A DNA stretch of 64,000 nt from Geosiphon pyriformis uo1 (taxonomy: Eukaryota > Fungi > Glomeromycota): the NCBI GenBank assembly GCA_016748015.1, contig JAAOMT010000299.1:471090-535089 (forward strand). Direction: 5' to 3'. Within the stretch, counting starts at the first letter, position 1. Each line of letters starts with the position of its first letter. The notes beneath the pieces are model-generated. The model worked only from the letters and a program-made list of their open reading frames with translations, did not search any database and was not told the DNA's origin. Below are positions 1 to 49,361 of the stretch, one piece after another. A program made the position numbers and the translations under genes.

Positions 1-3000
1 ACAACAGAATCAATCCAAATAACCAGTTGGTTCCCCAAAATTCGGGCCAGCAAAGACCCAATCACTATTACACTCAACCCAGTTATCTTACAATACCAGA
101 GGAATCGGATTTTCAACAAACTGCACTTTTTGAAGGTGAAATTGCAGCCCCAAGATCAAACTTTTCCAACCACACCATTCCCCCAGCTCAAATTGCCCAA
201 AATGCTAATCTGTCAGATATATTTCCATTTGAATTTGAGGCAAATGAATCACCATTTCTGCTTAGTAATGCAGCAGTCAATAAACAGAAAGCAATTACTG
301 CCATGTACACAGAAGCTACAGTGGAAGGAAAACCCATTCACTTAATCTTAGATAGTGGATTAGCTGGAAGTATCATTACTTACCAGCTGATGCAACAACT
401 CAAATGAAACATAGACAGACCAGCTCAAACAGTTATTGTCACAGCTGATGGTATGAAGAAGACTCCAGTAGGAGAAATTGATGATTTCTCTTTTTCAATT
501 GATGGAATCACCATTCCAGTTAATGTTCTTGTTATGGATGCACCCCAATACCAAGCTCTAGTCAGAAATGATTGGCTTCTCAAGGCCAATGCAAACCTGA
601 ACTGGGAAACTCAAGAACTTAAAATCTTATACAAAGGACAATATACTATAGTACCTGCAACCTGTGATACCTTTAACAAACGATCAGAAAAAGCTCCAGT
701 ATTTGAATTTGAAGAGGAGAAAGAAATGCCACTTACTGAAACCTACATGGCTCTTGGATCAACATCCAATTGGGCTGAAGAAACTGAACAAAAGATTTTC
801 GAAGAATCAAGGGGATGGAAAAAAGTTAGATATTCTACACCAGAACCACAGAAACAACCATTCTATATTCCACTCAAATGCAAAGATTGCAACAAAAAAC
901 TTTTATTAATGGGAGCATGTATTTCTCCAGAAGAGGAATATGAAACTCGTACCTGTTACTTTTGCAAAGCATGCCATAGAGAACAATTTGGATCTCCAAA
1001 AAGAAGTAGAAAATGGGACAACACATCTTGCCTTACATGTGGAGAAATACTACCAGAAGAATGCAATTGGATTGATGTAGCAATGAGAAGAGGAGTATGT
1101 GATCAAACCTGTCAATATGCTCTATCAATTTCGGAAAAAGTCAGAAGAGGGACACCATTTGATGCAGCATACAACAGTGCTTTCAATAAACTTTATCACT
1201 ACCCTCATGATGCTGAAATGATTTTTGACCTAGCAATGGCATTAATCAATGGAGCCACTCAAAAAGATGTCTGCCAAATGAAAGAAGCTGAATATATTGA
1301 GTACACCATAAAATTAGCTGGATTTGATTATGAAGATGAAGTAGAAACCTACCACCAAATTGCAAGCCACACATATCCGACCAAAGAAGCTCAAATTCAA
1401 TGATTAGAGCAAATAAACATTCAATTGTGTGAAGAATATGTTATGCTTTGTGATGACCAATGGTGTTTAGAATGTTATGCTCTTAGAATTCCTCTGCCAG
1501 ATGAGAATAATGAAAATGAAATCGAATTTGGAGTATCTGAACAAGTAGAAGAACTACCAACCACTCCCATTTATCTTCTTGAAAAGCAACCACCTTTACA
1601 ACTTAAATATTTTGACAACCATGGCCAAGGAATCAGACCAGAAAAAGCACACGAAATTGATGCTGGATATGACTTGAGATACCCAGGAAAAGATACTTTG
1701 ATTCTCCAACCAAAGTCTTTGACAAAAATCAATCTAAAAATTGCTCTTGAAATTCCACCAGGAGCAATGGTTCAAATTGTCTCCAGATCATTATTGGTAA
1801 GCAAAGGAATTAATATTAGAGGAGGAGTTATAGATGCAGGATACACTGGAGACATTACCATCATGTTACAGAATGAAACAGACAAACCATTCAAAATTGA
1901 ACATGCTGAAAAAATTGCTCAAGCAATTTACTTACTCTTAATCAACATTTCGGGTTTACAATCAGTAAACAACAGAGAACAATTGAGAAAAAATGAAAGA
2001 GGAACTCAAGGTTTTGGTTCAACTGGACGATTTACAGTTCCAGTAAACATAGTTCTTAATACACAAAATGAATCTCACCAGATTCTTCAACTTCCTCAGC
2101 CAATTACCATTTCACCTTTTAGAAAACATTACGAAATTTACACTTGCTCAAAACCCACCACTACACAACAAATCTTTGAATCCAATGAACAAATCTGTTT
2201 GAAGCATGAAATATCAATTCCAAACGTTTATATTCCCAAAGGAATGAAAAAATTTTGAGTTACATTCTACAACCCCAATAATTACCCTATTGTTTTATTA
2301 AACAAATTAGAAATTGGAATCATACACAGCAATATCTTTCAAGATGAAAACTCTCAAATTGTCTCTAATTTCATCGAAATTATAAAGCACACTCTACTCC
2401 TAAATCCAAATATTATTCCCACTACTGAAAACTACCACTTGTTGAAAGAAAAACTCTCTCGAATCAATATGGGTTCCTTAGAACCTCAACAACAAAGACA
2501 ATTGAAACAATTGATAGCTGAATTTGCAGATATATTTGCAAAAGACAATAATAACTTGGGAAAAACAGACATTGTTCAACATCAGATCCATACAGGAGAT
2601 GCTCTACCAAAACATCAACAAGCTTATCGAGTGCCACCTGCCAGCCACCAATTTATCAGAGAAGAGATCCAAAGAATGCTCAATAATGGATTGATTCAAC
2701 CATCAAGAAGTTCTTGGGCCTCACCAGTAGTTTTGGTTAAAAAGAAAAACGGAAAAATTAGATTCTGTGTTGATTATAGACAACTGAATAGTGTTACAAT
2801 CAGAGATGCCTACCCTCTTCCAAGAATTGATGACATGCTAGATGCTCTGGGAAAAGCCAAGTTTTTTTCAACTTTAGACTTGGAAAGTGGATACTGACAA
2901 GTCGAAATAGATCCAAAAGATAGACCCAAAACAGCATTCACCACTCAAGGAGGAAATTATGAGTTTAATGTTATGCCTTTTGGACTCTGCAATGCACCAG

Positions 3001-3875
3001 CAACATTTCAGCGACTTATGAATGTTGTCTATGAAGGGCTCTTGTGGCAATCAGTAGTTGTTTATCTTGATGATACTAATATATACTCACCAAGCTTTGA
3101 AGCCCATCTCATTCACCTGCGAGAAGTTTTTCAATGATTACGGAAAGCAGGATTAAAGTTAAATATTGAGAAATGTCACTTTGGAAAAACAAGTTTGATC
3201 TTTCTTGGACACATAGTTAGTAAAGATGGAATCAAACCAAATCCAGGAACAATCAATGCTGTCAAAAACTTTCAAACCTCCAGAAATACTACAGAACTAA
3301 GAGGATTTGTGAAATTAGTCTCTTACTATCGAAAATTCATAAAAGGATTCTCAGAAATTGCCAAACCACTCAATTATCTTACCAACAAAAACGTACCATA
3401 CAAATGGACTGAAGAACAACAAAAAGCTTTTGAAATTCTTAAAACAAAATTGACAACAGCCCCAGTTCTTGCTTATCCAGACTTCAACAAACAATTCCAA
3501 TTAGCCACTGATGCTTTACACATAGCATTTGGTGCCATCTTATCACAATTGGATGAAAATGGCCAAGAACAAGTTATTGCTTATGCCAGCAGAACATTCA
3601 AGCCAACAGAACTCAAATATGGCTCAACTGAATTAGAAGCTGTTGCAGTTATTTGGGCTCTTAAACATTTTCAACAATATCTGAAAAATGGAAAAAAATT
3701 TGACATAATAACGAACAACATTGGCCTCAAATGGCTCAATAAAAAGAAAACTGAACAAAGTGCCAAACAGTCTCGATGGAATAACTTCCTAGCAGACTAC
3801 AGATATATTGTACACCACAAACCAGGAAAACTACATACCAATGTTGATAGCCTCTCAAGAATGAGACAAGATTAG
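1..3875 (+). pseudogene. Element A ORF1: end of Gag, aspartic protease, Cys-rich domain, dUTPase, RT, RNase H; several premature stops
   Basis: ORF pieces 27, 453, 1425, 2439 and 3195 are all in one frame, separated by single stops (e.g. TGA where R or W is expected). Motifs: [32 protein letters not shown]...GAILSQ, ending at DSLSRMRQD*. Confidence 0.93.
1602..2027 (+). other. Trimeric-type dUTPase domain within element A ORF1
   Basis: All five dUTPase motifs are present: DAGYDL, SRS, GGVIDAGYTGDI, KIAQAI, RGTQGFGSTG. Confidence 0.95.
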
Positions 3876-3932
3876 TACCAACAACAATCCCACCACAACT
3901 TACCAACTTACCAACAAAATAACCAAACAAGA

Positions 3933-5100
3933 ATGGATCTCAGAAACTACAGCAATCTTAAAAATTATTTGGAGACCTTTATTATGCCAGAAAACTGGTC
4001 TCCAAGTGAAAAACACCACTTACAACACCAATCAAAACAATATTTCATACACCAGAACAAAATTTATTATAAAAATCACAGAAAACCAAACCAGCCACTC
4101 AGATTAATACAAGAGAATGAAAAAGAAACAATTTTATACAATATGCACACAGATCCGTCTTTAGCACACTTGGGAAAAGAGGGAACAATTCAAAGAACCC
4201 TTGAACATTATTTTTGGCCTCACATGCAAAAAGACATTTGACAATATGTAGAATCTTGTAATAACTGCCAAAGAAGAGGAGAAACTCGCCCCACAGAACC
4301 TTTAAATCCAATCAAAGTTGGACAACCTTTTGACAGAGTTGGAATTGATTTAGTCAGACCATTACTTATCACAACCCAAGGAAATTGTTATATTGCAGTT
4401 GCAGTGGATTATCTTACCAAATGGCCTGAAGCTAGAGCCATCCAAAGAGCAGATGCAAAATCAGTAGCAAAATTCATCTATGAAGACATTATCTGTAAAC
4501 ATGGATGCCCAATTGAACTCTTATCTGATCAAGGAACACATTTTGTGAACAACTTGATACAAGAAATTTGTGAATGGTTCAATGTCAAAAGACCNNNNNN
4601 NNNNNNNNNNNNNNNNNNNNNNNNNNNNNNNNNNNNNNNNNNNNNNNNNNNNNNNNNNNNNNNNNNNNNNNNNNNNNNNNNNNNNNNNNNNNNNNNNNNN
4701 NNNNNNNNNNNNNNNNNNNNNNNNNNNNNNNNNNNNNNNNNNNNNNNNNNNNNNNNNNNNNNNNNNNNNNNNNNNNNNNNNNNNNNNNNNNNNNNNNNNN
4801 NNNNNNNNNNNNNNNNNNNNNNNNNNNNNNNNNNNNNNNNNNNNNNNNNNNNNNNNNNNNNNNNNNNNNNNNNNNNNNNNNNNNNNNNNNNNNNNNNNNN
4901 NNNNNNNNNNNNNNNNNNNNNNNNNNNNNNNNNNNNNNNNNNNNNNNNNNNNNNNNNNNNNNNNNNNNNNNNNNNNNNNNNNNNNNNNNNNNNNNNNNNN
5001 NNNNNNNNNNNNNNNNNNNNNNNNNNNNNNNNNNNNNNNNNNNNNNNNNNNNNNNNNNNNNNNNNNNNNNNNNNNNNNNNNNNNNNNNNNGAACACTTAA
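3933..5100 (+). pseudogene. Element A integrase, a separate ORF interrupted by an assembly gap
   Basis: ATG at 3933; HHCC zinc motif (MHTD..AH / CNNC); GIDLV, DYLTKWPEA and SDQG. The C-terminus ...NT* after the gap matches the integrase end of element E. Confidence 0.88.
4595..5090. other. Assembly gap (N run)
   Basis: 496 consecutive N. Confidence 1.
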
Positions 5101-5243
5101 ATTTTACAATAATTCTCTACTAAAAACACAAAGACAAAAATAGTAAATAATTACAAAACACCCAAACCCAAAAACAAATAAAAACCTCATATCCAAAAAA
5201 TAATTTTCTTTATTCTCTCTTTTCATAATTAGTCAATTTTATC

Positions 5244-5951
5244 ATGATTATTCCCCGAAATATTCAACAAATATCCCAAAAATTAATGTTAGCCTTGAAA
5301 ACACTCCCTGACTTATCTATAACAATTAATGGAAGTCAAATTAAATACATTCAGAAAGAAACCACAGCCCCAGTAGCAAATCATTTACAGAACTATCACC
5401 CCTATAGAAGAGAAACAAAAAGTCACTCTGAGAATAGATTACTAAGACTTTTGAAACAGGCACTAAAAGAAAATCTGCTAATTGCCCCTATTGACATTCC
5501 ACCAAATACTACAATACAACAAAAACTACTACTACTTCTTAATGAACAGAACAATGAACACACCCCTATCTATAGATACTTTCAAATTGGAAAAACACTT
5601 TATGAACGAAAACTGGAACTTGAAGCAACAAATCTTACTCTTGAAGTTATACAAAAACAAATCTACAATGAATTCAAAACAGCAGCTGAACCAACAAACA
5701 CTTGCTACAAACTTAGAGCAGCTTTTAGACTCTATGATTTGTTTAATACTTGTGAAAATGTTCTACAAAATCCAATACTGCAATCAATAAAAGTCCAATA
5801 CATTGGCAAACTCACAGAACTGAAATTTCAACAATTTTCAGACCAAATTACTTCAATCATTTTAGATCACTATCTCAATATTACAGATAGTGCTTGGACT
5901 TTGATGGAGCTTAGTCTTAAGGAGGAGATTATGTTACCAGTAGAATTTTAG
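5244..5951 (+). CDS. Element A ORF3, 235-aa protein of unknown function; intact frame overlapping the PPT and LTR start
   Basis: Open ATG-to-TAG frame; homologous ORFs sit at the same position in C, D, E and F. Confidence 0.8.
   Translation: MIIPRNIQQISQKLMLALKTLPDLSITINGSQIKYIQKETTAPVANHLQNYHPYRRETKSHSENRLLRLLKQALKENLLIAPIDIPPNTTIQQKLLLLLNEQNNEHTPIYRYFQIGKTLYERKLELEATNLTLEVIQKQIYNEFKTAAEPTNTCYKLRAAFRLYDLFNTCENVLQNPILQSIKVQYIGKLTELKFQQFSDQITSIILDHYLNITDSAWTLMELSLKEEIMLPVEF
5919..5931 (+). promoter_or_regulatory. Polypurine tract of element A
   Basis: AAGGAGGAGATTA immediately before the LTR TG. Confidence 0.85.
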
Positions 5952-6901
5952 CTATTAATTAACATGAAATTACCCTTATAATTCTTATAATTCATTAGTA
6001 TATTAATATCATTTCAAATTATCATTTATTATTTAATCAATTATCACATATCACGATTCAATTAAAATAATCTAATTAGTATAACAGAAAGTAAGATGAT
6101 CAAATTACACAATACTCTGAACTTTGTAACATTCAAAAATTCGCCGAAATTTACAGAAATTCGCCGAAATTATGAATAGTTCACCCAAATTAATCAATAG
6201 TTCAGCAAAATAACTTGTAGTTCATCAAAATGTATCTTTAGTTTGCCGGAATTTGGGCAAAGAAAAAAAGTGCAAGTTCATAAACTAGTACTACAACAAG
6301 TTGTATAAAAGAAGAGCTTTTCTCTTCTGGAAAATGTATCTTACTTTAGATTTATCACTTAGAACCATTCCTACACACACAAAAGAAATAAATATCAAAT
6401 AATTTGAAAAACCAAATTCTTTAATTATTACACTTGGAAAATCCCCAAAACCCAACTAACATTTTGAAATTGATTAGCTACCAATTTTAGTAAACTGTTA
6501 GTGACTTCAGGCTTGGATAAAAAACGTTTCTCTTGACAAAATTCTATTTCTTTTACATTTTTTTTATTTTTTTTTATTTTTCTTATTACAATCATTAGGG
6601 TAGCCTACAGACAAGATTCCTGTAAAAGAGTTGACTTTCACAGCAAAGTAACTACACATTTTTAGTGAGCTTCCAGATGAACAATTCCTGGGAAAGAGTT
6701 GACGTTTACTACAACATAACTACATAAAGTAACTGGCAAGAAATTGGCCATTCCACTTATAAGCCCAGCAGTTCAAATTATAAGAGATAATTTGAAAATA
6801 AATTCAGTTATTGGAGGTTCAACTACTTTCTGAAAATGTGAATTCACAGCAAATCAACATTACCAACATTTAAGAAAAGAGACCAAAAACCTCCAGTAAC
6901 A
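5932..6901 (+). repeat. 3' LTR of element A (970 bp)
   Basis: TGTTACCAG...CCAGTAACA termini; homologous to the LTRs of B and E in reverse complement. Confidence 0.95.
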
Positions 6902-9900
6902 GCACTAATTTTTCCAGGGTCCGGTTTGATTCCATCTTTACTAACGATATGACCAAGAAAAGCCAAGCTTGTTTTTCCAAAGTAGCATTTTTCGATGTTG
7001 AGTTTTAGTTCTGCTTTTTGTAATCATTGAAAAACTTCTTACAGGTGTTTTAAGTGTAATTCGAATGATGAAGAATAAACATCAGTATCGTTAAAATAAA
7101 CGACTACTGACTTCCAAAGAAGTTTTTGATACACAACATCCATTAATCTCTGAAATGTTGCTGGTGTATTGCATAATCCAAAAGGCATTACATTGAACTC
7201 ATAATTTCCACCTTGGGTGGTAAATGCTGTTTTGGGGTGATCTTTGGGATCCATAACAACTTGCCAGTAACCACTTTCTAAATCTAGCATTGAAAAGTAT
7301 TTGGATTTTCCAAGAGCATCTAACATGTCATCAATTCGGGAAAGGGAGTAGGCATCTCCAATTGTAACACTGTTGAGTTGTTAATAATCAACACAAAATC
7401 ATATCTTTCCATTTTTTTTTAATTAGCACTACAGGTGAAGCCCAAGAATTCATGGAGGGTTGGATAAGCCTGTTGTTAAGCATTCATTGTACTTCTTCTC
7501 GGATGAATTGGTGGCTTTCTGGAACAACTCGGTAGGCTTGTTGTCACCTTGGTTTGGCGTCTCCTGTGTAGATTTGATGTTGAACCAAATTGGTTCTTCT
7601 TAAGTCATTGTTGTTTTCGGCAAAGATATCAGCAAATTCTGCAATTAGTTTTTTGAGCTGGTTTTGTTGTTGTGGTTCAAGTTGTCTCATGTTGATTTAA
7701 GATAGTTTTTCTATGACAACATGGTAGTTTTCAAAGCTGAGATTTGGGTTGATTTTTGATAGTGAATGTCCAATAATTTCAGAAAAATCGGGGACTGTTT
7801 GGGGTAATTCTTGTTGAAATATGTTACTGTGAATAACTCTAATTTCTAAATTATTTAATAAAACTATGAGGTAATTATTGGGGTTGTAAAAAGTAACTCG
7901 GACTTTCTTTGTTCTTTCTGGAACATAAATGTTTGGGATCAAAATATTATGTTCTAAGCAGACTTGTTCATTGGACTCAAAAATTTGTTGTGTGGTTGTT
8001 GGCTTTGAGCAGGTGTAGATTTCCGGATGTTCTTCAAAGGGTGAGATGGTAATTGGTTGTGGAAGTCTGAGAATCTGGTGGGATTTGTTCTGTGTTTTAA
8101 GGGCTATATTAACTGGAACTGTGAATCATCCAGTTGAACCAAAATCTTGGGTTTCTCTATCACTTTTTCCTAATTGTTCTCTTTGATTAACTAGTTGCAA
8201 ACCCGAAATGTTGATTAGGGGTAGGTAAATAGCTTGGGCAATTTTTTCATGTTTGATCTTGAATGGTTTGTTAGTTTCATTTTGAAGCATTATTGTTATG
8301 TCTCCAGTATATCCAGCATCGATTATTCTTCCTCTGACATTGATTCCTTTGCTTGCCAGAGAGGACTGGGAGGCGATTTGAACCATTGCTTCTAGTGGAA
8401 TTTTGAGTGCAATTTTGAGGTTGATTTTTGTGAGAGATTTGGGTTTGAGAACAAGAGTATCTTTGTTTGGATATTTTAGGTCATATCCAGCATCAATTTC
8501 GTGTGCTTTTTCGGGTTTTATTCCTTGTCCATTGTTGTTGAAATATTTGAGTTGTAAGGCAGGCTGATTTTCGATAAGATAGATGGGTGTTGTTTCAATT
8601 TCTTCCATTGCTTTAGGTTCTTCAAATTCAATTTCGTTCTCATCACTTTTGCTGGGCAAGGAGATGCTAAGAGTGTAGCATTCAGGATACCACTGTTCAT
8701 TACAAGGCATAATGCATTCTTCACATAGCCTAATGTTCATTTGCTCTAATCATTGAATTTGAGCTTCTTGGGTTGGGTAGGTGTAACTTGCAATTTGGTG
8801 GTAGACTTCTACTTCATCTTCGTAATCAAATCCAGCTAATTCCATGGTGTATTCAATGTATTTTGCTTCCTTTATTTGACGGACATCTTCTTTGGTAGCT
8901 CTATTAATTAATGCCATTGCTAGGTCGAAAATCATCTCAGCATCATGGGGGTAGTGATAAAGTTTGTTGAGAGCACTGTTGTATGCTGCATTAAAGGGTG
9001 TTCTTCTTTTTACTTTTTCTGAAATTGATAAAGCATATTGGCAGGTCTGATTGCAGACTTCTCTTCTCATTGCTACATCAATCCAATTGCATTCTTCTGG
9101 TAGCATATCTCCACAAGTCAAATAAGGGGTGTTATCCCATTTTTCACTTCTTTTTATTAGATGGCCCCATCATTCTCTGTGGCAAGCCTTGCAGTAATAA
9201 CAAGTATGATTTTCATATTCTTCTTCAGGTGAAATACAGGCTCTCATTGATAATAGTTTCTTGTGGCAGTCCTTACATTTAAGAGGAATATAGGGGCATT
9301 GTTTCTTTGGTTCTGGCTTTGAGTATAGGATATTTCATCCAGAGGTTTCAGGTTCAGAGTGTGGTGTAAAATGTTCTTGTTTAGTTTCATCGGCCCAATT
9401 GGACATTGATCCAAGAGCCATGAATGTTTCAATTATTGGTTTTTCTTCTTCTGATTCAAATTCAAAAGCCAGGGCTTTTTCAGAGCATTTGTTAAATGTA
9501 CCACAAGTGGCAGGTACTTGGGCATGTTGTCCTTGGTAAGAGATTTATAGTTCTTGGGTTTCTCAGTCTAATTTTGCATTGGCTTTCTGGAGCCAATCAT
9601 TTCCGACAAGAGCTTAGTATTGGGGAGCATCCATGACCAAAACTTTGACTGGAATGGTGATTCCGTCAATTGTGAATGGAAAATTGTCAATCTCTCCTAC
9701 TGGAGTCTTTTTCATGCCATTGGCAGTAACAATGATTGTCTGAGCTGGTCGGTCAACATTTTTTTTAGCTGCTGCATCAATTGATATGTGATGATACTTC
9801 CAGCAGATCTACTGTCTAGGATCAAGCGAATTGACTTTTCTTTTACTTCAGCTTTTGTGTACATTGTAGTGATGGCTTTTTGTTCATTAGCCACTGCATT

Positions 9901-11934: not shown

Positions 11935-11936
11935 AA

Positions 11937-14728: not shown

Positions 14729-14789
14729 GGACATTTCAACCCAAAAATATAACAAAACCAAAACAATACTCACAAAAATATAACAAAAG

Positions 14790-16172: not shown

Positions 16173-16226
16173 TCCATCAAAAGAATATATAAAGACAAGG
16201 TAGACGCGACAGGAAATATCAGAAAA

Positions 16227-16850: not shown

Positions 16851-16869
16851 TATTAAAAGGAGAGAATAA

Positions 16870-25074: not shown

Positions 25075-28000
25075 AAAAAAATCAAAAAAAAATAATAATT
25101 AACAATAATTTATTGCTAAAAAAAAAGAAACAAAAGTGGTGACAAAAACCCCTACCCTTACTGTTCTTGAATTTTGCCATGCTATTTACACACAAATCAA
25201 AGTGATCTTAGATTACCAGAAGAGTGTTGTCCAGCAAAATCTGCTCTTACTTATTATATCAATGCCAGAATAAATTACCACATAGGAAAGGAAGAAGAAC
25301 CACATGATGCAAAACTTGGATTGTATAGAGAATTATTACAATACACTACAAAAAAAGTAGCAGTAATAGCCGCAACTATTGTCAAAATCCATCAAGAAAT
25401 TGAGCAATATGCCAACAAAAATTTTCTAATATTCACAGGAAACACTAGGGAAAGTACCAACAAAACCAAAGAAAATTTAGAAACTAATCAAGAAAGTAAC
25501 CAGCAAAAACTAGAAACATCTGCTCAAACACTAAAGAAAACTGTCACTCAATTAATAAAGAAACAACATATTTATTCACCAGAAAATAAATCATACCATT
25601 TTTCACCAGAAAATAAGATACAAATTCTATTAGGAGCTGCATCATCATCAACATCAACTCCACAAATGCCAAAAACTAGTTATACTGTAAAATTAAATAA
25701 CGTAACTAAAGAAACATACCAATTACAGAAGGATATTTATTACTATTCCAAAACTCTTTTTTTCAGCCAAAATTCGGAATGGGTTTGAAAACCATAAAAA
25801 AAAGTCTGAATCAGAATCTGAAAAAAAGACCAGTGAAAAAACAATCACAAAACTGGTTACTAGAACAAGCAGCCAGTCCAGAAACCAAGAAACTCATGAT
25901 TAAGAGGAAGAACCAGATATAAGGAAAGCCACCTTTAGGAATGCTCAAGGAAATATTATCCCTCTTCCTCTTAGACCAATAAGCCCACCAGCAGAAAATG
26001 GCAACAAAATAGCCATACTATATATCACAAGACTAACAGATTTCTCAGAAAAGAAAGAAGAAATGGACATACACACATGGCTCAGAGAAGTGCAAAAAGC
26101 CATCCAGGCAAATAACTGGAATGACCAAAGAGCAATTCAAACATTATTTTCTTCTTGAAAGGCACAGCTGACTTATGATATCAAAGCCTGAAAACAAAAC
26201 TCATGAGCTTCACCGAATTTAAAAATGCACTCCTGGAGTATTTTAGCGACCCAAACACTGTAATCCAACTACAGAATGAATTCAATACTATCAAGCAAGG
26301 TACCAATGAAACTGTTACCCAATATCTTGCTTAATTCAATCAAATTTACCATTAGATTGAAGCGATTGAATAAGGATACTATACCAATTCTTAGGTTTTA
26401 AATCAATTTATTAGAAGATTAAAAAGCAGTATTTTAGGAAGAGTATGCTCTGCCTACCCTAATTCATTGCCAAAAGCCGTTACACTTGTCAGAGCTTTTG
26501 AATTGGCTGAGAAAGAAGCTAATCATAGTCAAATGATTAACATAGTAATAGAAAAAAACAAGACAGAAATGTTAGAAAAGAGAGTAACATAATTAGGGAA
26601 GGAACTCTCTAAGAAAATAGAAAGTTACTTCATCTTGGACCCAGGAAGAAATAACACATACCAAATACCTCAAAGACACAACCAGAAATTCAGCGGCAGC
26701 CAAAATAATTGCTCATCATGTTAGAACTTTAGAACAAAAACACACATCTGCCATTTTTGCAAATGCATATGACATTTGATCAGCCAATGTCGAATGCAAA
26801 TAATGCAAAAGGCACATGAAAATAATTATTATATGCCCCCCCAAATGCTCAGAAATTAATACACGCCAATACTACATTAATACTCTACTACATACCAAAA
26901 TCAAGGAACTTACCAGCAATGACTAGTGATTCCAAATCCAAACTGGCATTCAGAGTTTTAAAGCCAGCCAGTATTAGGTCAAAATGCAATTATTACTAGA
27001 AATCCTAATCACGTAGGACCTAATCAGCAAACAAATACAAACTACCCAAACTATCCAAATTTCTAGCCAACTTATCTTAATATATCAGAAAACTTAAATC
27101 TCGGAATTATTAATGGTAACATACTTGGAACCAAAATTATCACCAATAGCCAAAACTTGATCCAAACAATACCACCAGCCATTGTCACAGAAGATAGCAG
27201 CCTCACAGCTATTTTTTCTTTTAAATTAGAGGAAAAAGAGGCTATGTTTAGTGGAGCAGCATTGGACAAGGAATGTCCAATTACTGCTATGTACATGGAA
27301 ACAAAAGTAAACAACACATCAATTAAACTCATCTTAGACAGTGGATCCACCAGAAGCATTGTAATGCTTCAACTAGTAAACCAACTGGATTTCAAAGTTG
27401 ATTATGCTGTGATGTTCTAAATTATAACAGCTGATAGAAGTACCAAACTGCCTCATGGCAAAATCGACATATTCCCTTTCGAAATTAACGGCATAATAAT
27501 ATCTACAAAAGTATTAGTAATAGATGCTACACAATATTAAGCATTAGTAGGGAATGACTGGCTAACAAAAGCCAATGCCACCCTAGACTGGACCACCCAA
27601 AAGCTTTTGATCAATTATAATGGCCACCAGACCAGAATTCCAGCCACCTGTGGCCACTTCCAAAAACCCAGCACCAACCAAAGACCTACCTTCAAATTTA
27701 AGAAAAATCCAGCACTACCAGTCATTGAAACCTATTAGCTCTCTTGGGCTAATGACCAAAGAACAAAACTACCAGCCGTACCAACATGGATCAGCAAAGA
27801 AAGATCCAAATGAAACCAGATAAGTCCATAAAGAAACCACCAGTAATGTAGACCAAAGCTAGAATGCTCAGTTTGTAAAAAAAAACTCTCATCTATAACT
27901 GCATGCAGCACACCAGACAAAAACTCAAGAAACCCCACCTACTACTATTGTAACTATTGTAACAAAGAAAAATACAGTTACCCAGAAAGACATGGAAAAT

Positions 28001-30853
28001 GGGACAAGGAATCATGCCTCACTTGTGGAGAACCATTACCAAGAGAGTGCAACTGGAATGACATACTAGGCAGAAAAAGAACATGTAATGCAACTTGCCA
28101 ATACATGATTCTCATTTGTGACTGGATAAGAGGAGGAATGCTATTTGAAACAGCATTCAACAGAGCATTAAAAAGACTACAGTACTACTCACATGATGAG
28201 AATGAGTTATACAACACCACACAAGCCAAAGTAAGAGAAGGAACTGCCGAAGAAATATGACATTGGAAAGTGTCAGCTGAAATAGCCAACAAAGTTGCCA
28301 ACTACAACATGTTCGACCCAGTGGATGAATTCCAGGAAAACTACTAACAGCTATGCCCCACTTGCCAAGAGCAAGAACAGTATCTCGCCCAGATTAACAC
28401 TTACCTTTGCGAAGACTGTCTTATTCCATGCCAAAGTCAGTGATGTGAAGAGTGTCAATACAAAAAGGACTTAGAAAGAAAAATGAAAATTGAGAATCAG
28501 CAGTACCAAAATCAATCAATAAATCAACAAAACTCACCTGACAGTTCTGAGTCAAAAAATATTTTAGCCTATACCGATCTAGATCAGAAGATCAGCATCC
28601 AGTACTATGACAATGGGCACTTAAGAATAGTACCCGAAAGAGCCCATCCAACTGACACTGAATTCGATCTACAGTATCTGGAAGACCAATTCACAACATT
28701 GCCACCCAGGAGTATTACTAAAATCAACCTAAAAATAATGATTGAAATTCTGCCAGGAATAATGGTCTAAATAATGTTATGATCAAGCCTTGCGAAAAAA
28801 GGAATAAGCATTTAAGGAGGAGTAATTGACTCCAGCTATACTAAAAATTTGATAGTTTTGCTACAGAACAATTCAGAAAAATCTTATACCATTAAATCTA
28901 AGGAGAAGATTGCACAAGCAATTTTTCTACTATTAGTAAAAATTGGGAAATTTGTGCCAGTAGAAAATCGTGAGAAATTGATACAAACAATAAGAGAAAC
29001 TTTTGGTTTCAGATCAACAGGAAAATAAATTGAAGCAAATTTTGCTGAAACAATAGAAGAAAAAGGCAAATTAATTAAAACTAAGTGGTCAATTACACTC
29101 ATGCCTTATGGAAAATCAGAAATTAAAATAAAAAGAACAATAAAAGATATAAATCTAATATTTGAGCCCCACCCAAAAACTTGCCAACAGTTTTCTATAG
29201 GACTTACTAACCTTTTTATTCCAGCTAACAAAACACAATGGATAAAAATTCCTATCACAAATACCACAGAAGAGCTCATATACATTCCAGAAAACACCAT
29301 CATGAGATACCTTGGAACAGAACTAGAAAATGCATTAACACCACAAGAAATTCTAAATTTCCCAAAAATTGCCCTTTACTGTGAACTCACTTCAATAAAT
29401 TGGCAACAACCATTGGAATGCTATCAATTTACACCAGAAGAATTGGCCAAATTAAACATTGGAACAATAAATCCGGACCAACAGCAACAATTAAAAGCAT
29501 TAATTTTAAAATACTCTGATATATTTTCATGAAATGGTGAATTTGGAAAAACCAACTTGGTTCAACACCAAATTCCCACTGGGAATGCCAGACCTGAAAA
29601 ACAACGCACTTACTATGTCCCACTAATAGAGCATAATTTTATCAGAGAAGAAGTCCAAAGCATGTTAAAAAAAAAATAATTCAACCATCAATAAGCCCAT
29701 GGTCTTCACCAGTTGTTTTAATAAGAAAAAAAACAGAAAAATTAGTTTTTGCATCGACTATTGCAAACTAAACAGCAAAACAACCAAAGATTCATATCCA
29801 ATATCATTAATTGACAAAATCTTCAATGTTTTTGGAGGAGCAAAATGGTTTTCTACACTTGACTTGACCAGTGGATACTGGCAAGTAGAAATGGACCCAA
29901 AAGACAGGCATAAAACAGCATTCACAACACAAAATGGCAATTATAAGTTCAATGTAATGCCATTTGGATTGACAAATGCTTCCATAACATTCCAAAAACT
30001 AATGAACATAATTTACTCTGGAATTTTGTGGTAATCCATTGTTGTCTACTTGGATGATACAAATGTTTTCTTGCCAAAATTTGTGGATCATCTCCAACAT
30101 TTACAACAAGTTTTTGAGAGATTGAGACATGCTGGACTTAAATTAAATTTAGAAAAATGTTTCTTTGAGAAAAATAAGTTAGCATTTCTAGGAGACATAG
30201 TTAGAAAAGATGGAATAAAACCAGATCCATCAAAAATAGACAAAGTAAAAAATTTTCCAGTACCTCGAAACATTTCAGAAGTTAGAGGCTTTTTAGGACT
30301 TACATCTTACTACTGCTGCTTTGTAGAAAACTTTTCAAACATCGCCAAACCTCTTAATTATCTATTATCTAAAAATGTGAAATTTGAATGGACCAAAACA
30401 CAGCAAAAAACTTTTGAGTACCTTAGGCAAAAGCTTATTGAATCACCAATAATAATCTATTCAGATTTCAACAAGAAATTCATTTTGGCCACAGATGCCT
30501 CTGGAATGAGACTTGAAGCCATTTTGTCACAAAAAGATGATAATAGAAGAGAATGTGTAATCACTTATGTCAACAGAAGTCTCAGTACAGCAGAGCAAAA
30601 CTATACAGCACATGAACTTGAATGCTTAGCAGTAGTCTGGAGTTGTGTTCACTTTGACACATACTTATGGTACAAACTCTTTGATATTACTACAGATCAT
30701 AGAAGTCTGGTCTGGTTAAATAACAAAAAAACACTAAAAGGAAAATACACCAGATGGTTACAAATATTAGCACCATACAATTATATCATCAAATACAAAG
30801 AAGGTACCAAAAATGCCAATGCTGACTGCTTGTCATAAATAAGACACACATAA
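25057..30853 (+). pseudogene. Element D ORF1: Gag (CCHC knuckle), PR, Cys-rich domain, dUTPase, RT, RNase H; start approximate
   Basis: CHFCK..GH...C, LILDSGS, CLTCG/CQY, RAHPTD.EFDL, KIAQAI, LDLTSGYWQ, YLDD, TDASG and NADCLS motifs, with many stops. Confidence 0.9.
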
Positions 30854-32264: not shown

Positions 32265-32349
32265 TTAATCTTAAATTACACCAAGAAACAGTTAACAAAG
32301 CATAAAAATGCATGCAAAAGAGCCCAAAAAGCAGTCAGAAATTAAAACA

Positions 32350-37267: not shown

Positions 37268-40200
37268 TTAGATTTGTCTCATTCATGACAAGCCATCAGT
37301 ATTTCCATTTTTTTTTCTCTTTTTATAATGTACTGTATATTTAAATGATAACAGTTCTATTTTCCATCTGATATGGTAGTTATCTCCAAATTTTTGCTTC
37401 TGGATTGATGTCAATTCTTTGTGATTAGTATATATGTTGAATTTCTGGCTTAAGTATTCCTTCTATTTCATAACTGCCCAATAGATAGCTAAGTGTTTTA
37501 GCACTAGTGTTTTATAGTTTTTTTCAGCTAGATTCAAGTTTTAGCTGGTATATACTACTAAATGTTCTCATCCATCTGGTTTTCTTTAAGATAGTATGAC
37601 TCTCAATGCTTGACCAGATACATTGGTAGTAATAATGAATAGTTTGCTGTGATTTGGATAGATTAATACTGGTGCTTGAATAAGCTTTTTTCTTAACATT
37701 TCAAAAGCTTTTTATTGAGCTTTAGTCTATTTATATTTCACATTTTTGGCTTGGAATTGGTGAAGTGGTTGAGCCAGTTTGGAGAAATTCTGAATAAAAC
37801 AGTAATAATATTCAGCAAATCTCAAGAATACTTTTAATTCTGTAAGATTCATTAGTACCAAAAAGTTTTTAACAATTTCAATCTTGTTTGAATCTGTCTT
37901 AATTCCATTTTTGTTCACAACATGTCTCAAGAATTTTAGTTTTGTTTTGCCAAAGAAATACTTGTTTGTATTTAGTTTTAATCTGGCTCTTTTGAATTTC
38001 TTAAACACTTGCTGTAAATAATAAAGATAATTATCAAATGTTTTTGAGAATACATTGGTGTTATCCAAATACACAACTACTGATTTCCATAATAATCCAG
38101 TATAAACAATTTCTATAAACTGTTGGAAAGTGGCTGGTGCATTGGTTAAACCAAATAGCATTACTTCAAATTCAAAATTTCTCTTTCTGATAGTAAATGT
38201 GGTCTTTTTTTTATCAGCTGAATTTATGGCTACTTGCCAGTAACTACTATTCAAGTCTAATATAGAGAACCATTTCTTTCCTCCAAAAATGTTAAATAAT
38301 TTTTGTATTCATGAAGTTAGATAACTATCTTTATATGTTACTCTATTAAGTTTTTTGTAATCTACACAAAAATAGATTTTTTTATTTTTTTTATGGACTA
38401 GTACTATTGGTGATAATCATGAACTCATTGATGATTGAATTAACTCATTGTCTAACATCCAATTGATTTTTTGTCAAACAATTTCATGGCTGGCAAATAG
38501 TATTTTATATGCTCTCTGTTTTATTGGCATGATATTTCCTGTCTTGATCTGATATTGAATGATGTCAGTTTTGTCAAATTCATTTTTATTGGCAAAGATA
38601 TCAGTGAAATTATTAAGCAATATTTTAAGCTGTATTTATTGAAGTGGATCTAAATTTCCCAAGTTTATTTGTTCTAATTGTTTTGATTAGAGCAAATAAT
38701 ATTTTTCTTATCCATATATTGTTTATAATGTGATATCTACGTATTTACATAGTTGTGGAAAATCTGAAATGGTGCTTGGTAATTGTTTTTCAACTTCTGT
38801 ACTTAAATAACCAATAATAGTTTCTTTTGGTATTTTGATAATCTTTTTTGTTATATTGTAGATAGAAATTTTAATGTATTTAGGGCTTTTGGCTAGTATG
38901 TAAAGATTGGTAATTCCAATTTTTTCTGATTTACAATTAGTAGCTTTTACTTCAAAAATTTGAGCTTGATTCTTTATTTTTTTTTCTATGGCTAATATGT
39001 ACTGGTCATATAATAAAATGGAAATTAATTGATGAGTGGAGATAATTTTTTCCTTGTCAATAACTTTTTTCTCTACCATATTAACTAATATATCTATTTT
39101 ACCCATGGATCCAAATCCATTTTTTTCTTTGGCTGTAATCCCTAATTTTTCCCTTGTTTTTACTAACACTAACTGAGCTATTTTCACCAAAAGTAGAAAT
39201 ATTGTCTGTGCTATCTTTTTATTTAGTTCAATAACATATTCTTTTTCTGAGTTATTTTGTAATATTGCAATAATATTTCCTATATATTCTGCATCAATTA
39301 TTTCTCCTTTGATGTTAATTTCTTTTTTCACTAAACTACTTTTAGATATTAGTTGGACCATTGTTGTTGTTGAGATTTCCAGTGCTATTTTTAAATCTAT
39401 GTAGATATGCAAATGTGGTTTCAATTTGATGGCATTTTTTCTTAGATATCTTAGATCAAATTCTGTATCAATATTATGCACATGTTCTGACATAATATTT
39501 TCATTATTATCATTGAACTATTTAAGTTCTTGCTCTTTTGAAAGATCAAAGAGTATGATATATTGTTCTGAATTTGAATTAAAGTCTAAATCATTGTTAT
39601 TGGTGTTGTTTTTTTAAACTGAACTGAAACCATTGTTTTTGTTATTGTCATCAGGGTTTAAATTGAGATTGAACAGTGATTCCAATTCTAATACACAGTT
39701 GTTGATTGGTTCTTCTTCTTTTGAAATTATGTAGATTATATGTGATGGTAAATTATAAATAAGATTACAATTATTACAATACTTAAAATCACATGGTATT
39801 AAACAATAATCACATAGTTGGGTGTTTAGCTCTTTTAAATGTTGTTCTTGCTTTTTTTATGTAGATGCCAAGTCCTGATAGTGTTCATGGAACTGCTTTG
39901 AATTGTCTTCAATATTATTAAAAACATTAAAAGTGAAGATGTATTCTGGTTTGGGTAGTAAGAGTAAATTGTTCTTAATTTCCAATAGTTCATTGAGTAA
40001 AATACTTTTAATCTTGGTGCTTGCCATTCTCCATATCTTGTGTTTGTCATGTGAGTATTTTTCTAAATATTTTAGTACTCATTTCCAGACATTGTCGATT
40101 GGAGTCTCTTTTTGTATCTAATCATTAATTAAAATCATATATTGACACATTTTATTGTATATTGTTTCTCATCTAGAAATGTTATTCCATATTTTTTTAT

Positions 40201-43200
40201 CAAAAAGAATTGTTCTACATGTAAAACAAAACTTATTGTTCTATTTTTCTTGTCTTTTTGGTCATCCAAAGCATTCAAAAATACATAGGTGGCAGTAGTA
40301 TTTAGTGACCATTGGCTATTCTTTATTGTTACTACAACAAATGTCTATTGTTGACAATTTTTTGCCATAATCAATACAAATTAGCTTGAATTGACAATAG
40401 TTTGGCTGTAGTTGAGTGGTAGTAGTGTATGGTATATATGTAAAAATAGTTGCTTGGGTTTCTTTTTCTTCTTTTTTTTTTCCTTTTTCTTTCTCTTCCT
40501 ATGTAGGTATTAATAGTAACTTATTGTGTTCTTCTTTGGCCCATAATATCTAATATGTTTCCCAGGTAGGTTTTTTTTCTTTTTCTTCCAACTCAATTAG
40601 TGGCTGTTTATTGGTGGTAGTCTTAAAATGACCACAAATAGCTGGTATTCACATGTATTGGCTATTTTGACTGAATTGTAGCTCTTGGGTGTTCTAGTTA
40701 AACACTACATTGGTTTTAAACAGTCAGTTATTACCAATGAGGGCTTAATACTGAGTAGCTTTCATTACCAATACGTTGATAGACATAATGATGCTGTTAA
40801 CTTCAAAAAGGAAGTTGTTGATTTCACTAATTAAAGTTTTTATTGCTCCATCAGCTATTATTATCTTGGCACTGGCAACACAATTAACTTGGTGACTTAA
40901 TTGGTTCATGAATTACTTGGTAATAATACTGTCTACTGAACTGCTATCCAGGATCAGTTTAATAGAATGGCCATCAACTTTTGCATTAGTATATATGGTC
41001 ATGATTGCTTTGGTATTAAAATTGGTTCCACTAAATATGGATGTTGTTGCTGGTTCTTCAAGTTTAAAAAAAAAAGTGGCTTCTAATAAGTCATTGTTGG
41101 TAATAGTTGCTGATAGAATGTTGTTGGTAGGTGGTTGCTTTTGGTTGGGCTCTGGTTTGTTGAGTGATACATTTTCTGAGTTAACTAAAAGACTTAAATA
41201 GTTTTGAGAATTTGGGTTTTGGGTGTACTCAGTTCCTGAACTCTGCTAGTATGATCTTGATAATTGGTTTAAGGAGCTTAAGATCAGCTAATAAACAACT
41301 ATTTCCAATCTTCAATTCTGGATCATTCTTGGCCTTTGGTTTTTGAGTGTCATCTGAACTGTAATGTGTGATGGTATTTGAAGTTATTGAGATTAATAGA
41401 GAATTTGTGGCTGCAACTGATATATTATTAGTGCTGAAGGCTGATAAATTGAAGGTGAATATGTTTGTTGTGTCATGAATAGGTAATAAAGTTGGTAGTG
41501 ATATTGTTTGGATGATTGATTATTGGCATAATTCGAGATTTGAAACTGGTAATTAGAGTTTCAATATTGATTTTCTGATTATTGGTTATTTAATTTTTGG
41601 CAACAATCTATTCTTATGTGTTCTTGTTTACCACAATAGTAGCAGATACACATCTTTTACTGCTATTGTTAATTTAATAAATGTGACTAATTCTGGAGTT
41701 AATTAGAATTTCTTAGATTTTCATAATGTTGTGATGGCTGATAAATTGCCTAATTGTTATTATTAGCTAAGTACCCTTCAATTTTCTGATCAATAGTATT
41801 ACTAAATTGTTTTAGCTTAAAGTCCAATTCAGATGATCTATTTATTACTAGATTAACAGCTTGGAGGTGGTTGGCTTTTAACTCTGCTAATTCAAAATCT
41901 TGGACATATATGACTGCATTTTGGAGTGTATTTGGGTACATTAAATGTACTCTTTATAACAAGCTACTATACAATCTACAGATAAACTGATTCAGAATCT
42001 GTGGTGTTATAAAATAGTCAGCTTTAATGGCTTGTATTTGGCACAGATTTTTGTAAAAGCATCCCAAGTAGGTGGTAACTGCTTTAGTATTACCTTGTTT
42101 GATTGTAGTGATACTATTGGCTAGTCGGTTAATATTATTATTATCACTAAAATACTGTAGAAATGCAGTTTTAAATGCATTAAAGATTTGTGGTTTGTTG
42201 ATGAGATTCTAATACCATAAATTGGCAGTATCTTAGAAAAAATATGGGATTGCTTAAAGTGCTTTAACATCATCCCAGTTATTTGCTGTGATTGCTTTAG
42301 TAACATTATTTAACCAGGCTTGGGCATTATCCTTTTTACTAGTAAATTTTTCAAGTTTTGCAATTGGAGTGTAGACCATTGGTTGTTATAACTGTTGTTG
42401 AAGTTGTAATAGTGGTAGTTGTTGCTGAAGTTGTGGCTGTGGTTATTGTGGTAGTATGACAACTAATGGTGGATTGATCACAATTACTGAAGGTACATTT
42501 TGCCAATTAATAATATCAGGATTTGAATTATTCTAATTTTGTTAAGTTGTAATAATTGGAGTTTGAATTTCTGGGTTTTTTGAAATTGGGTTTTGATAGT
42601 TAAATTCTTGATTGTTGTCTTCCTCTTCTTTTGATTCCATTATTTTCTAAAGACTCATGGTTTCAAAATTTGGCTAAGGTGATAGTAATCAAAATTCTGA
42701 TGGCATTGGTAATTGTAAATTAAATCTTTCAAAATAATTACTGTAGGTTCTCAATAACTTTGCTTTTTTTTGTTTACTTTGAAATGGAAATTGGGCTGAT
42801 GCTGTTTTCGCATTTAATGTGAATATGCCTGTTAATAAAATGTTGATGGTACTTCCAAGTATATAGTGATATAATAGATTAGTTGGTGATTCAACTCTTG
42901 TTTTTTTTTAAGTAAGTGATTGTATTCTTTAAGATATTACTGCTGGTGTTTGTAGCTTTCTCTTGCTCTTGTTTACATAGGTAATTAAATATCTTTGTTG
43001 AGTGTGATTTTCAATTTCTTAATTGATTTCAGTAATAATAGATGCAAAGTTATGATTTACTAATAGGCTGATGTTTTGAATTAATTTGTTGTAAAAATTT
43101 TCTCTTGCTAATTTAATATCTACTAGTGTTTTTAGAAAATAAGAAATTCTCTTGTTGACATAGAAATTAAAGGCTAATTTTGCTAATAGGTGATTGCTGG

Positions 43201-46133: not shown

Positions 46134-47114
46134 TGTTACCAGAGGTTTTTGGTCTCTTTTCTTAAATGTTGTCGATGCTTGTTTGCTGTAAATTCACGTT
46201 TTCTGGATGTGGTTAAACCTCCAATAACTGAATTTATCTTCAAATTATCTCCTATAATTTGAACTGCTGGGCTTATAAGTGGAATGGCCAATTTCTTGCC
46301 AGTTACTTTATGTAGTTACGTTGTAGTAAATATCAATTCTTTCCCAGAAATTGCTCGTCTGGAAGCTCACTAAAATGTATAGTTACTTTGCTGTAAAAGT
46401 CAACTCTTCTACAGGAATCTTGTCTGTAGGCTACCCTAATGATTGTAATAAAAAAAGAAAAGAAAAATAAAAAAAATGTAAAAAAAATAGAATTTTTGTT
46501 AAGAGAAACGTTTTCTATTCAGGCCTGAAGTCATTAACAGTTTACTGAATTTGGTAGCTAATCAATTTCGAAATGTTAGTTGGGTTTTTGGGGGTTTTTC
46601 CAAGTACAATAATTAAAAAATTTGGTTTTTCAAATTATTTGATATTTATTTCTTTTTGTGTGTATAGGAATGGTTTTAAGAGATAAATCTAAAGTAAGAT
46701 ACATTTTCTCAAAGAAAGAAGCTCTTCTTTTATACAACTTGTTATAACACTATTCTATGAACTTGAACTTTGCTATTTTCTATAATTTTGCTGAACTAAA
46801 GATACATTTTGGTGAACTACAAGTTATTTCTGTGAACTATTAGATATTTTGGTAAACTATTAATTATTTCGGCAAATTTCTACAAATTTCGGCAAACTTT
46901 TAAATATTACATAGTTCGGGATAATGCATAATTGATCATCGCAATTAGGTTACATTTGTGTTGTGTACAATTTGGGTTATTAATTAAATGATAATTTCGG
47001 ACATTTTTGCTAATGTAATAAGTGATAATTTGAAACGATAATATATGCTAATTAATGATAGAAATTATAAGATAATTTCATGCTAAATAATATTTCTAAT
47101 TTCGTCTGGTAACA
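46134..47114 (-). repeat. 3' LTR of E
   Basis: TGTTAC...GTAACA termini; adjacent PPT (reverse complement GAGGAGGAGATTA). Confidence 0.96.
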
Positions 47115-47802
47115 TAATCTCCTCCTCAAGACTGAGCTCCGTTGAAGTCCAAGTACTGTTTGTTATTTCCAGATAATAATCCAAAATTATTGAAAAAATT
47201 TGGTCTGAAAATTGTTGAAATTTCAGTTCTGTGAGCTTTCCAATGTATTGAATCTTCAAAGGTTGAAAAATTGGGTTTTGTAGTATGTTTTCACAGGTGT
47301 GGAATAGGTTATAAAGTCTAAAAGCAGCTTTGAGCCTGTAGTGACTGTTTGTTGATCCAGCTGTTGTCTTGAATTTGTTGTGGAGTTGTTTCTGAATAGC
47401 TTTTTTTGTGAGGTTTGCTGTTGTAAGTTTCAGTTTCTGTTTGTAAAGTGTTTTTTCAATGTGAAAATATCTATAGATTGGAGGATATTCAGTGTTTTTT
47501 TCATTGAGACACAGTTGAAGTCTTTGTTGAATTGTAGTATTTGGTAGAATACTAATCAGAGTGAGCATTAGGTTTTCTCTTAAAGCAAGCTTTAAAAGTT
47601 CTGGCAGGTGAATTCCAGTATAACTTCTTGTGTTCTTCTTATACGGGTGATATTTTCGTGAATTTGGGGCTAAATTTGTAACTACTTCTGTTTGGGTATA
47701 ATTAATGTGGTTTCCAGTAACAGTAATGGATAATTCAGGTATTGTTTTTAAAGCTAACATTAGTTTTTGGGATAATTGTTGAATGTTTTAAGGAATAGTC
47801 AT
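47083..47802 (-). pseudogene. Element E ORF3; one early stop at codon 5, otherwise open
   Basis: MTIP*NIQQLSQKLMLALK... matches A ORF3 MIIPRNIQQISQKLMLALK... Confidence 0.82.
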
Positions 47803-47923
47803 TATAAGCAATTTGAAATAACAGAAAATTATTTTTGGTGTATGGGTTTTTATGTTATTTTTGTTTTGTTTTTGTGAGATTGTTTCTAATTTATAAGAAG
47901 ATAACTATAATAATAAATTTAAA

Positions 47924-49309
47924 TTAAGTGTTCAAGTTGGGAGGCTGTTCAATGACAACTATTGGTTCTAAATTTCGGAGAATGTCTTTGAGATTGATTA
48001 AAGGGAAATGTGTACCAATTTGTGGAATTAATGGTTCAGGATTGTTTCTGGAATTATAGTGTTTCAAATGATCTCCATGTGCAACTTTTGCTAGAATTTT
48101 GTCATCAAGTTTTAGCTTGTATGATCTGTTGCCTAAAACTTCATGGATAAAGAATGGTCCATCCCATTTATTTTCAAATTTTCCACTCCATTGTTTTTCA
48201 GCTTTAGTTCTGTATAAGAGAACTTTGTTTCCAATTTTAAATTCATTGGTGACTGGAGACAATTTGTCATCATGCCGTTCTTTTTGTTGAGCTTGGGAGT
48301 GTTCAATATAGGTGGCTGCTATTCGTCATTTTCCTTCCAATATGCTAAGCAGAGTGTAGGCTCTTTGCTAAAGCATTTTTTGGAAATTGTTTTTATCGAT
48401 TGGTTGTGTTGGGTATGTTTCCACTGTGAAACTAATTGGTAATGTTGCTGTTCTTCCATAAGTTAAATCAAATGGTGTGTGTTTTGTGGTATCTTGTTTT
48501 AGTGTTCTATATGCTAGTAACACTAATGGAATAAAGAGATCCCATTCTTGCTCAAAATCAGTTGAAACTTTGGCTAATGATTCACACAATGTTCTGTTAA
48601 ACTGTTCTACAAGTCTATTTGTTTGTGAATGGTAGGGTGAAGATAATGATCTCTTAACATTAAATCATCCACAAATTTCCTGGATTAAATTGTTCACAAA
48701 ATGTGTTCTTTGATCAGATAAAAGTTCCATTGGGCATCCATGTCTACAAATGATGTCTTTGTAGATGAAGTTTGCTACTGATTTTGCATCTACCCGTTGA
48801 ATGGCTCTGGCTTTAGGCCATTTGGTGAGATAGTCTATGGCTACTGCAATATAACAATTCCCTTGGTTTGTGATAGGTAGTGGTCTGACTAAATTGATAC
48901 CAACTTTGTCAAAAGACTGTCCAACTTTGATTGGGTTTAAAGGTTCTGTAGGGCGAGTTCCTCCTCTTTTTTGACAATTATCACAAGATTCAACATATTT
49001 GTGAATGTCTTTTTTCATTTGAGACCAAAAGTAGTATTCTAGTGTTCTTTGGGTGGTGCTGTCTTTTCCGAAGTAGGCTGATGAAGGATCTGAGTGCATA
49101 TTGTATAATATAGTCTCTTTTTCATGTTCTTGTATTAATCTAAGTGGTTTGTCTGGGTTTTTGAAATTTCGATGATAAATAATGTTGTTGTGTAGAAAAT
49201 ATTGTTTGGCTTGTTGTTGTAGTCGATATTTTTCATTTGGAGACCAATCTGTTGGAATTGTTAATGTTTCCAAATATTGTTTGAGATTGTTGTAGTTTTC
49301 CGAATTCAT
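47924..49309 (-). pseudogene. Element E integrase (separate ORF, different frame from RT-RH)
   Basis: ORFs 48665..49309, 48368..48589 and 47924..48262 are in one frame; C-terminal W.GPF module, no chromodomain. Confidence 0.92.
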
Positions 49310-49361
49310 TGTTTGTTGGCTCTTTTGGTTGGTTAAGTTGAGTGTTGGTTTTTGTGTTTTT

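Follow-up and report, generated by a model that had tools for sequence, protein, structure and literature searches.

The locus raises the question of what a cysteine-rich segment of about 200 residues does between the protease and the dUTPase of a retrotransposon polyprotein. The DNA analysed, a stretch of 64,000 nucleotides from Geosiphon pyriformis (hereafter the window), is rich in AT and holds a cluster of LTR retrotransposons in decay, labelled here as elements A to F. To our knowledge, accessory domains inside Gypsy Pol are few, and they are mostly known enzymes or chromodomains.

Position of the domain and structure of the elements

The host element is a Ty3/Gypsy LTR retrotransposon, with gag followed by protease, reverse transcriptase (RT), RNase H and integrase in that order. 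In frame +3 of copy A, Pfam assigned the protease (residues 104-186), the dUTPase (residues 546-675), and then RT, RNase H and integrase, while no Pfam family was assigned to the interval between protease and dUTPase. The 203-residue domain lies in this interval, in the same frame (+3) as both enzymes, with its first Cys codon at 879 and its last at 1473-1475; the multi-cysteine domain described in the sequence-only reading is thus present as claimed. Its recurrence in elements B and E and in the divergent D and F was likewise recovered by tblastn, with 79% (B), 74% (E), 37% (D) and 30% (F) identity to copy A. All five copies in the window are decayed and every one of them is broken. The domain directly precedes the dUTPase in all five, and also in P0160, a stop-free protein fragment of 1064 aa comprising protease, domain, dUTPase and RT, whose domain is 42% identical to copy A.

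Only copies D and E of the window retain all 13 conserved cysteines. Tyr replaces Cys at two positions in copy B and at two in copy F, while in copy A the second Cys of finger 3 is Tyr; at position 1438, 40 contigs of DNA run X1, accounting for most of the depth there, carry the Cys base. The proposed C-terminal motif CEEC..PC therefore needs correction for copy A, which reads CEEY..LC and contains a TGA stop. The domain contains 16 cysteines in 203 residues, and the remaining 1327 residues of the polyprotein contain 12 (Fisher p=4e-8). As the domain had been chosen for its cysteines, conservation is the better test.

Table 1. Location of the domain copies, predicted fingers and element features in the window.
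Feature	Position	Strand	Basis or remark
Aspartic protease, Pfam-matched part, element A	312..560	+	PF13650, E=3e-9
Cys-rich domain, copy A	873..1481	+	12/13 conserved Cys; internal TGA 1401-1403
Finger 1, CxxC-x24-CxxC, predicted treble clef	879..974	+	conservation, model, weak LIM/TRASH alignments (model residues 1-44)
Finger 2, CxxC-x19-CxxxC then helix, TRASH/MYM-like spacing	1029..1112	+	conservation; weak ribosomal-chain/GATA3 alignments
Predicted helical bundle	1113..1400	+	pLDDT >90 over first half, model of intact relative
Finger 3, CxxC-x3-C-x4-CxxC; second Cys is Tyr in copy A	1428..1475	+	conservation, pattern
dUTPase, element A	1638..2027	+	PF00692, E=3e-20
RT, RNase H, integrase zinc-binding and core domains, element A	2736..4589	+	interrupted by N gap 4595-5090
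3' LTR of element A, polypurine tract ahead	5932..6901	+	LTR/PPT inspection
Cys-rich domain, copy B	8672..9283	-	tblastn; 11/13 Cys
Cys-rich domain, copy D, second subfamily	27859..28458	+	tblastn; 13/13 Cys
Cys-rich domain, copy F, third subfamily	39764..40384	-	tblastn; 11/13 Cys
Cys-rich domain, copy E	51750..52361	-	tblastn; 13/13 Cys, one internal stop
Full-length element E	46134..56006	-	981-bp LTRs 94% alike, 4-bp target duplication, PBS-like and PPT sites
Extra 3' ORF, elements A, E, C, D, F in turn	5229-5951(+), 47083-47787(-), ~16143-16865(+), ~32242-33021(+), ~35200-35800(-)
LTR pairs compared	46134-47114/55026-56006, 24262-25054/33035-33850, 34321-35178/43350-44192

Element E has LTR ends of the TG..CA type, a site resembling a primer binding site (PBS), a polypurine tract (PPT) and a target duplication, the last being clear for this element only. 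Its gag to RNase H region forms one reading frame, the gag/pol stop being a TGA where copy B has Arg; translated in this way, the domain would be synthesized in the same amount as capsid. An FE[FI]E-like motif is present on either side of the protease, and in all six sequences a motif of the form ETY/F-hydrophobic precedes the domain by 22-62 residues. Both are candidate protease sites, uncalibrated, as no literature report on Ty3 cleavage sites was found. Between the domain and the dUTPase lies a poorly conserved linker of 35-70 aa with a candidate cleavage motif. The integrase tails of elements C, D and E terminate in SH3_Tf2-1, with no chromo family at E<=1, and thus do not show the chromodomain that marks a chromovirus. 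The lack of a chromodomain asserted in the sequence-only reading thus holds for the three integrase C-termini scanned; that of element A falls inside the N gap and that of F outside the scan.

Several other features accompany these elements. Elements A, E, C, D and apparently F carry an extra same-strand ORF of about 240 aa, located after integrase and ahead of the 3' LTR; its sequence diverges from one subfamily to another and no Pfam family matches it, so that it represents a second unnamed accessory protein. The spacer that separates dUTPase from RT (window 2031-2480, + strand; about 145 aa) shows 20-33% identity from one subfamily to another, and a comparison of A with E indicates purifying selection on it; it has no Pfam match in copy A, and our impression is that it may be a degenerate second dUTPase-like fold. 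In the gag of element E (53265-55085, - strand), the capsid domain is preceded by about 280 extra N-terminal residues, which have no Pfam match. Broken ORFs flanking element E at 56199-61672 (+), including an RT at 58931-59647 (PF00078), probably belong to another retroelement, perhaps a non-LTR one. In the region 6905-16321, the truncated element B abuts the 3' LTR of A, and element C starts right after the LTR of B, without its 5' part including the Cys-rich domain.

The window has a CpG observed/expected ratio of 0.24. In three LTR pairs, 56 of 58, 66 of 67 and 132 of 134 differences are transitions (97-99%), and they occur in all cytosine contexts, beyond CpG. This excess looks like RIP-like or broad methylation-driven mutation. 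The accessible part of one preprint reports that Gigaspora margarita and Mucoromycotina lack RIP signatures, and that transposable elements of the related Rhizophagus irregularis carry a high level of CG methylation (bioRxiv 10.1101/2021.03.30.436303).

Conservation, selection and range

A profile alignment placed 334 segments from 276 of the 277 collected proteins, many of them gene models with spurious gaps, so that residue counts vary between columns. The proteins fall into four subfamilies with 173, 36, 65 and 2 members. These are only 30-42% identical in the domain, yet 13 cysteines are common to all four, being the majority residue of each at positions 3, 6, 31, 34, 53, 56, 76, 80, 186, 189, 193, 198 and 201. 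At these columns Cys accounts for 1529 of the 1736 aligned residues and Tyr, a product of local G-to-A decay, for 120; the cysteine positions proposed from the window are therefore conserved in a larger alignment. Cys16, Cys28, Cys64 and His112 are not universal across subfamilies, and the alignment columns contain no His ligand conserved in all of them. HYPHD, listed earlier as a shared motif, is not one, since His112 is Glu in both members of the fourth subfamily. The same loss led to rejection of HYPHD as a catalytic HD motif. Besides the 13 cysteines, 44 further columns keep their majority residue across the four subfamilies, and conservation is higher in the domain than in the linkers on its two sides or in the spacer downstream. 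The domain is a genuine conserved unit.

Substitutions were counted only in codons differing at one base, leaving out stops and seven codons around an indel. At sites where B and E agree against A, transitions comprise 23 synonymous and 14 non-synonymous changes (expected synonymous share 0.34, p=3e-4), and transversions 9 and 5 (expected share 0.11, p=2e-6). The sibling copies B and E differ in the domain by 14 synonymous and 29 non-synonymous changes, with omega of about 1, corresponding to neutral decay. Purifying selection constrained the domain as the A and B/E lineages diverged, at a time when the elements were still active. Conservation and purifying selection thus bear out the earlier view of a multi-zinc-type module inside Pol lacking a Pfam family. 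The A-vs-E transition ratio is 0.48 in the domain, 0.49 in the dUTPase and 0.35 in the protease. Between subfamilies, the domain (30-42%) is less similar than the protease (45-65%) and the dUTPase (45-64%), a faster divergence that would be expected if the domain were a binding module and not an enzyme. Across 10 non-independent pairs, domain identity correlates with protease identity (Spearman 0.90), which is consistent with inheritance as part of Pol.

The 120 listed of 245 matches to the copy A domain are all G. pyriformis hypothetical proteins, as are all 24 matches to the copy D domain. A profile search of 1.84 billion representatives yielded 363 matches, the best 150 of which were listed; among these, 18 of the 20 looked up are from G. 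pyriformis, the other two, P0160 and P0257, coming from ENA assemblies. A query with the P0160 domain among proteins of 585-1862 aa returned only P0160 itself (one of 78 candidates). No relatives were confirmed among 151 pattern matches in IMG/VR, or among 299 and 122 in JGI metagenomes. The range of the domain looks narrow, albeit incompletely seen. The element family is very abundant, with 8341 contigs of one DNA run mapping on a 1.2-kb stretch.

Predicted fold and comparison with known zinc fingers

Searches of Pfam, PHROGs, NCBIfam and PDB sequences gave no significant family for the domain, and no known retrotransposon family emerged from the Pfam search. One PDB sequence search matched the dUTPase flank only, a zf-HC5HC2H match appeared in one of 46 members (E=0.002), and the best ESM Atlas scores, 0.80 and 0.82, were at the level of shuffled proteins.

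An AlphaFold model of copy A based on 18 sequences had low confidence (pLDDT 54). The model of the P0160 domain with 46 sequences reached a mean pLDDT of 77 and a pTM of 0.55; its pLDDT exceeds 90 at residues 81-140 and lies at about 50-65 in finger 3. In it, the first two cysteine groups each form short strands followed by a helix, suggesting a fold of two treble-clef C4 fingers, a helical bundle and a terminal C4 finger. From the cysteine spacing and the model, the domain is predicted to bind three zinc ions. Finger 3 shows CxxC-x8-CxxC spacing plus a fifth Cys in four of six copies; we presume a resemblance to the RecR finger, and no RecR-like match for it came from the library scans.

With the whole P0160 model as query, Foldseek returned no PDB or BFVD match at E<=0.001. 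LIM and GATA tandem fingers headed the PDB list at non-significant scores (E 0.46-0.9), and RING proteins appeared low in the lists (E 0.5-4). VIA-align against 48,161 chains gave a best Z of 4.3, none reaching 5. Model residues 1-44 align weakly with LIM halves, the ZMYM5 TRASH finger and EndoVII (Z 2.1-2.9), and residues 55-146 with GATA3 and the ribosomal chain 6xu6_CW (Z 4.0), which we take to be eL24; a PHD-like domain and GATA fingers are also among the weak neighbours (Z 2.1-2.9). Finger 3 and the last helices were barely covered, so the missing fold match does not show a new fold. On the basis of the weak fold scores and the spacing, fingers 1 and 2 are likely, but not certain, to be two treble clefs.

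Known finger classes are recognized by their ligands: C3HC4 or C3H2C3 in RING, C4HC3 in PHD, two CGxCxxC repeats in the zf-CXXC reader of CpG, CxxC..HxxC-x2-CxxC..CxxC/H/D in LIM, and CxxC-x17/18-CxxC within one finger in GATA. None of six copies (the five of the window and P0160) contains the RING C3HC4, RING-H2, PHD, LIM, zf-CXXC, CCHC or C2H2 pattern. GATA spacing occurs at residues 31-56 in three of the six; there it runs across predicted fingers 1 and 2, and it is lost where indels shift the distances. Finger 1 superposes on a LIM half with an rmsd of about 2.5 over 37 residues. However, unlike the tandem fingers of LIM and GATA, the domain has no His ligand and has 18-20 residues between its fingers instead of 2, and the LIM pattern is unmatched. 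The two identities suggested by the sequence-only reading, an E3-like finger and a CpG or chromatin reader, thus find no backing in ligand patterns, and the fold searches gave no significant match.

A further likeness is to the TRASH clan (zf-FCS/MYM, ribosomal L24e), with which finger 2 shares CxxC-x19-CxxxC followed by a helix. Structural agreement is weak, with Z 2.3 and rmsd 3.3 over 39 aligned residues for the ZMYM5 TRASH finger and rmsd 4.8 over 54 for 6xu6_CW. The spacing CX2C-X14-30-CX3C is found in finger 2 of four of the six copies, B and F having Tyr. Unlike in TRASH fingers, the third Cys of finger 2 is preceded by Val, Thr, Met or Ile and followed by Asp or Asn, there is no Pfam match, and the helical bundle and finger 3 have no counterpart. 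The zf-FCS consensus, as given in the accessible text, has this spacing with Phe before and Ser after the third Cys (PMC4047054). The domain thus resembles TRASH in finger type, and as judged from sequence would lie outside any described family.

Possible functions and relation to known elements

A dUTPase between protease and RT is also present in PosPlaTy3-5 of Postia placenta (PMC2864245). In the accessible part of that paper, the fungal dUTPase-bearing Ty3/Gypsy elements of Postia, Phanerochaete and Tuber are presented without mention of a Cys-rich domain, the term 'zinc finger' occurring nowhere; the title of its supplement describes the dUTPase-bearing elements as chromodomain-containing, in contrast to the Geosiphon integrases scanned. 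The Juno LTR elements of bdelloid rotifers are also comparable: the available text gives them a dUTPase between protease and RT, an adjoining zinc motif, and an integrase tail of the GPY/F type without a chromodomain (PMC5408684). Their single zinc knuckle, however, follows the dUTPase, whereas here a three-finger domain of 200 aa without a CCHC pattern precedes it. The portion of PMC3248453 that was available mentions neither dUTPase, nor zinc, nor PHD. The accessible literature on Geosiphon and Glomeromycota elements, on fungal dUTPase Gypsy elements and on cysteine-rich domains beside a dUTPase contains no description of the domain. It is apparently undescribed; the element table of PMC2864245 may bear on this.

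That this is a real zinc-finger accessory domain of Pol can be stated with high confidence. Its role is far less certain. The best explanation, advanced tentatively, is a non-catalytic binding module holding the dUTPase at the RNA/cDNA copying complex. The domain would be translated in frame between protease and dUTPase of the Gag-Pol polyprotein, 1:1 with Gag; the element's protease would then free it, alone or still joined to the dUTPase, and the folded domain, predicted to carry three zinc ions, would tether the dUTPase to the copying complex inside the particle. This role is ranked first because of the fixed adjacency to dUTPase, the Juno precedent, and the ability of FCS/TRASH-type fingers to bind RNA, DNA or proteins, as described in the accessible part of PMC4047054. 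Against it, the C-terminal half of the domain is net acidic in five of six copies and finger 2 carries almost no net charge, neither of which favours an interaction with nucleic acids. In addition, the linker with its candidate cleavage motif means that domain and dUTPase may part, all fold matches are weak, and the dUTPase-bearing fungal Gypsy elements of PMC2864245 are described, in the part available, without such a domain.

A bolder proposal, which we consider doubtful, is that of a three-zinc accessory factor at capsid stoichiometry that reads chromatin or disarms methylation silencing, and thereby helped LTR elements reach about 40% of the Geosiphon genome. Taken as a counter-silencing factor freed from Gag-Pol, the domain would bind element DNA or host silencing proteins, like VANC of Arabidopsis (PMC6719617, accessible part). 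The heavy host attack recorded in the LTR transitions and in a CpG content of 0.24 of expectation is in line with such a role, as are the CG methylation of transposable elements in R. irregularis (bioRxiv 10.1101/2021.03.30.436303) and the 41.2% share of LTR elements in the G. pyriformis genome (PMC11952901), both taken from partial texts. The faster divergence of the domain relative to the enzymes would fit an arms race, but no non-synonymous excess was found; family and fold searches revealed no similarity to VANC or any chromatin protein, and the separate 3' ORF is an equally good candidate. We regard this role as unlikely. Still less likely is that the domain reads chromatin or CpG and thereby guides integration, replacing the chromodomain missing from the three integrase tails, as the sequence-only reading suggested; the analysis turned up nothing that links the domain to targeting. 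Targeting outside the integrase is possible, DGLT-A using its RNase H (PMC6101501, accessible part), and the PHD-like domain and GATA fingers stand among the weak fold neighbours; nevertheless, PHD and zf-CXXC patterns are absent from all six copies, and a domain located about 870 residues upstream of the integrase would have to rejoin the integration complex after processing.

An E3-ligase-like finger removing a host restriction factor or surplus Pol products is very improbable: apart from the richness in cysteine and the RING proteins far down the Foldseek lists, nothing points to it, RING C3HC4 and RING-H2 being absent from the six copies, no His ligand being conserved, and the cysteines being spread along 200 aa in three distinct groups, unlike a single cross-braced unit of 40-60 aa. 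Equally remote is a passenger role, in which a captured fragment or structured spacer is retained solely to keep the frame intact. The very narrow known range and the broken state of every window copy would suit it, but the reading is already largely refuted by an omega well below 1, by the 13 cysteines and 44 other columns held across four subfamilies, and by conservation exceeding that of the flanking linkers and the downstream spacer. The probability left over from all these readings belongs to some other function.

Overall, the Geosiphon elements represent a known kind of retrotransposon in which an abundant family carries a selected, lineage-restricted accessory domain. Hundreds of G. pyriformis 'hypothetical proteins' are fragments of this element family, and their gene models are thereby explained as transposon debris. 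The intact domain of P0160, at residues ~341-553, makes zinc content, structure and binding directly testable. As an adaptor of dUTPase the domain would be a modest addition to what is known of such elements, whereas, if it counters silencing or steers integration, it would represent a new mechanism for LTR elements.
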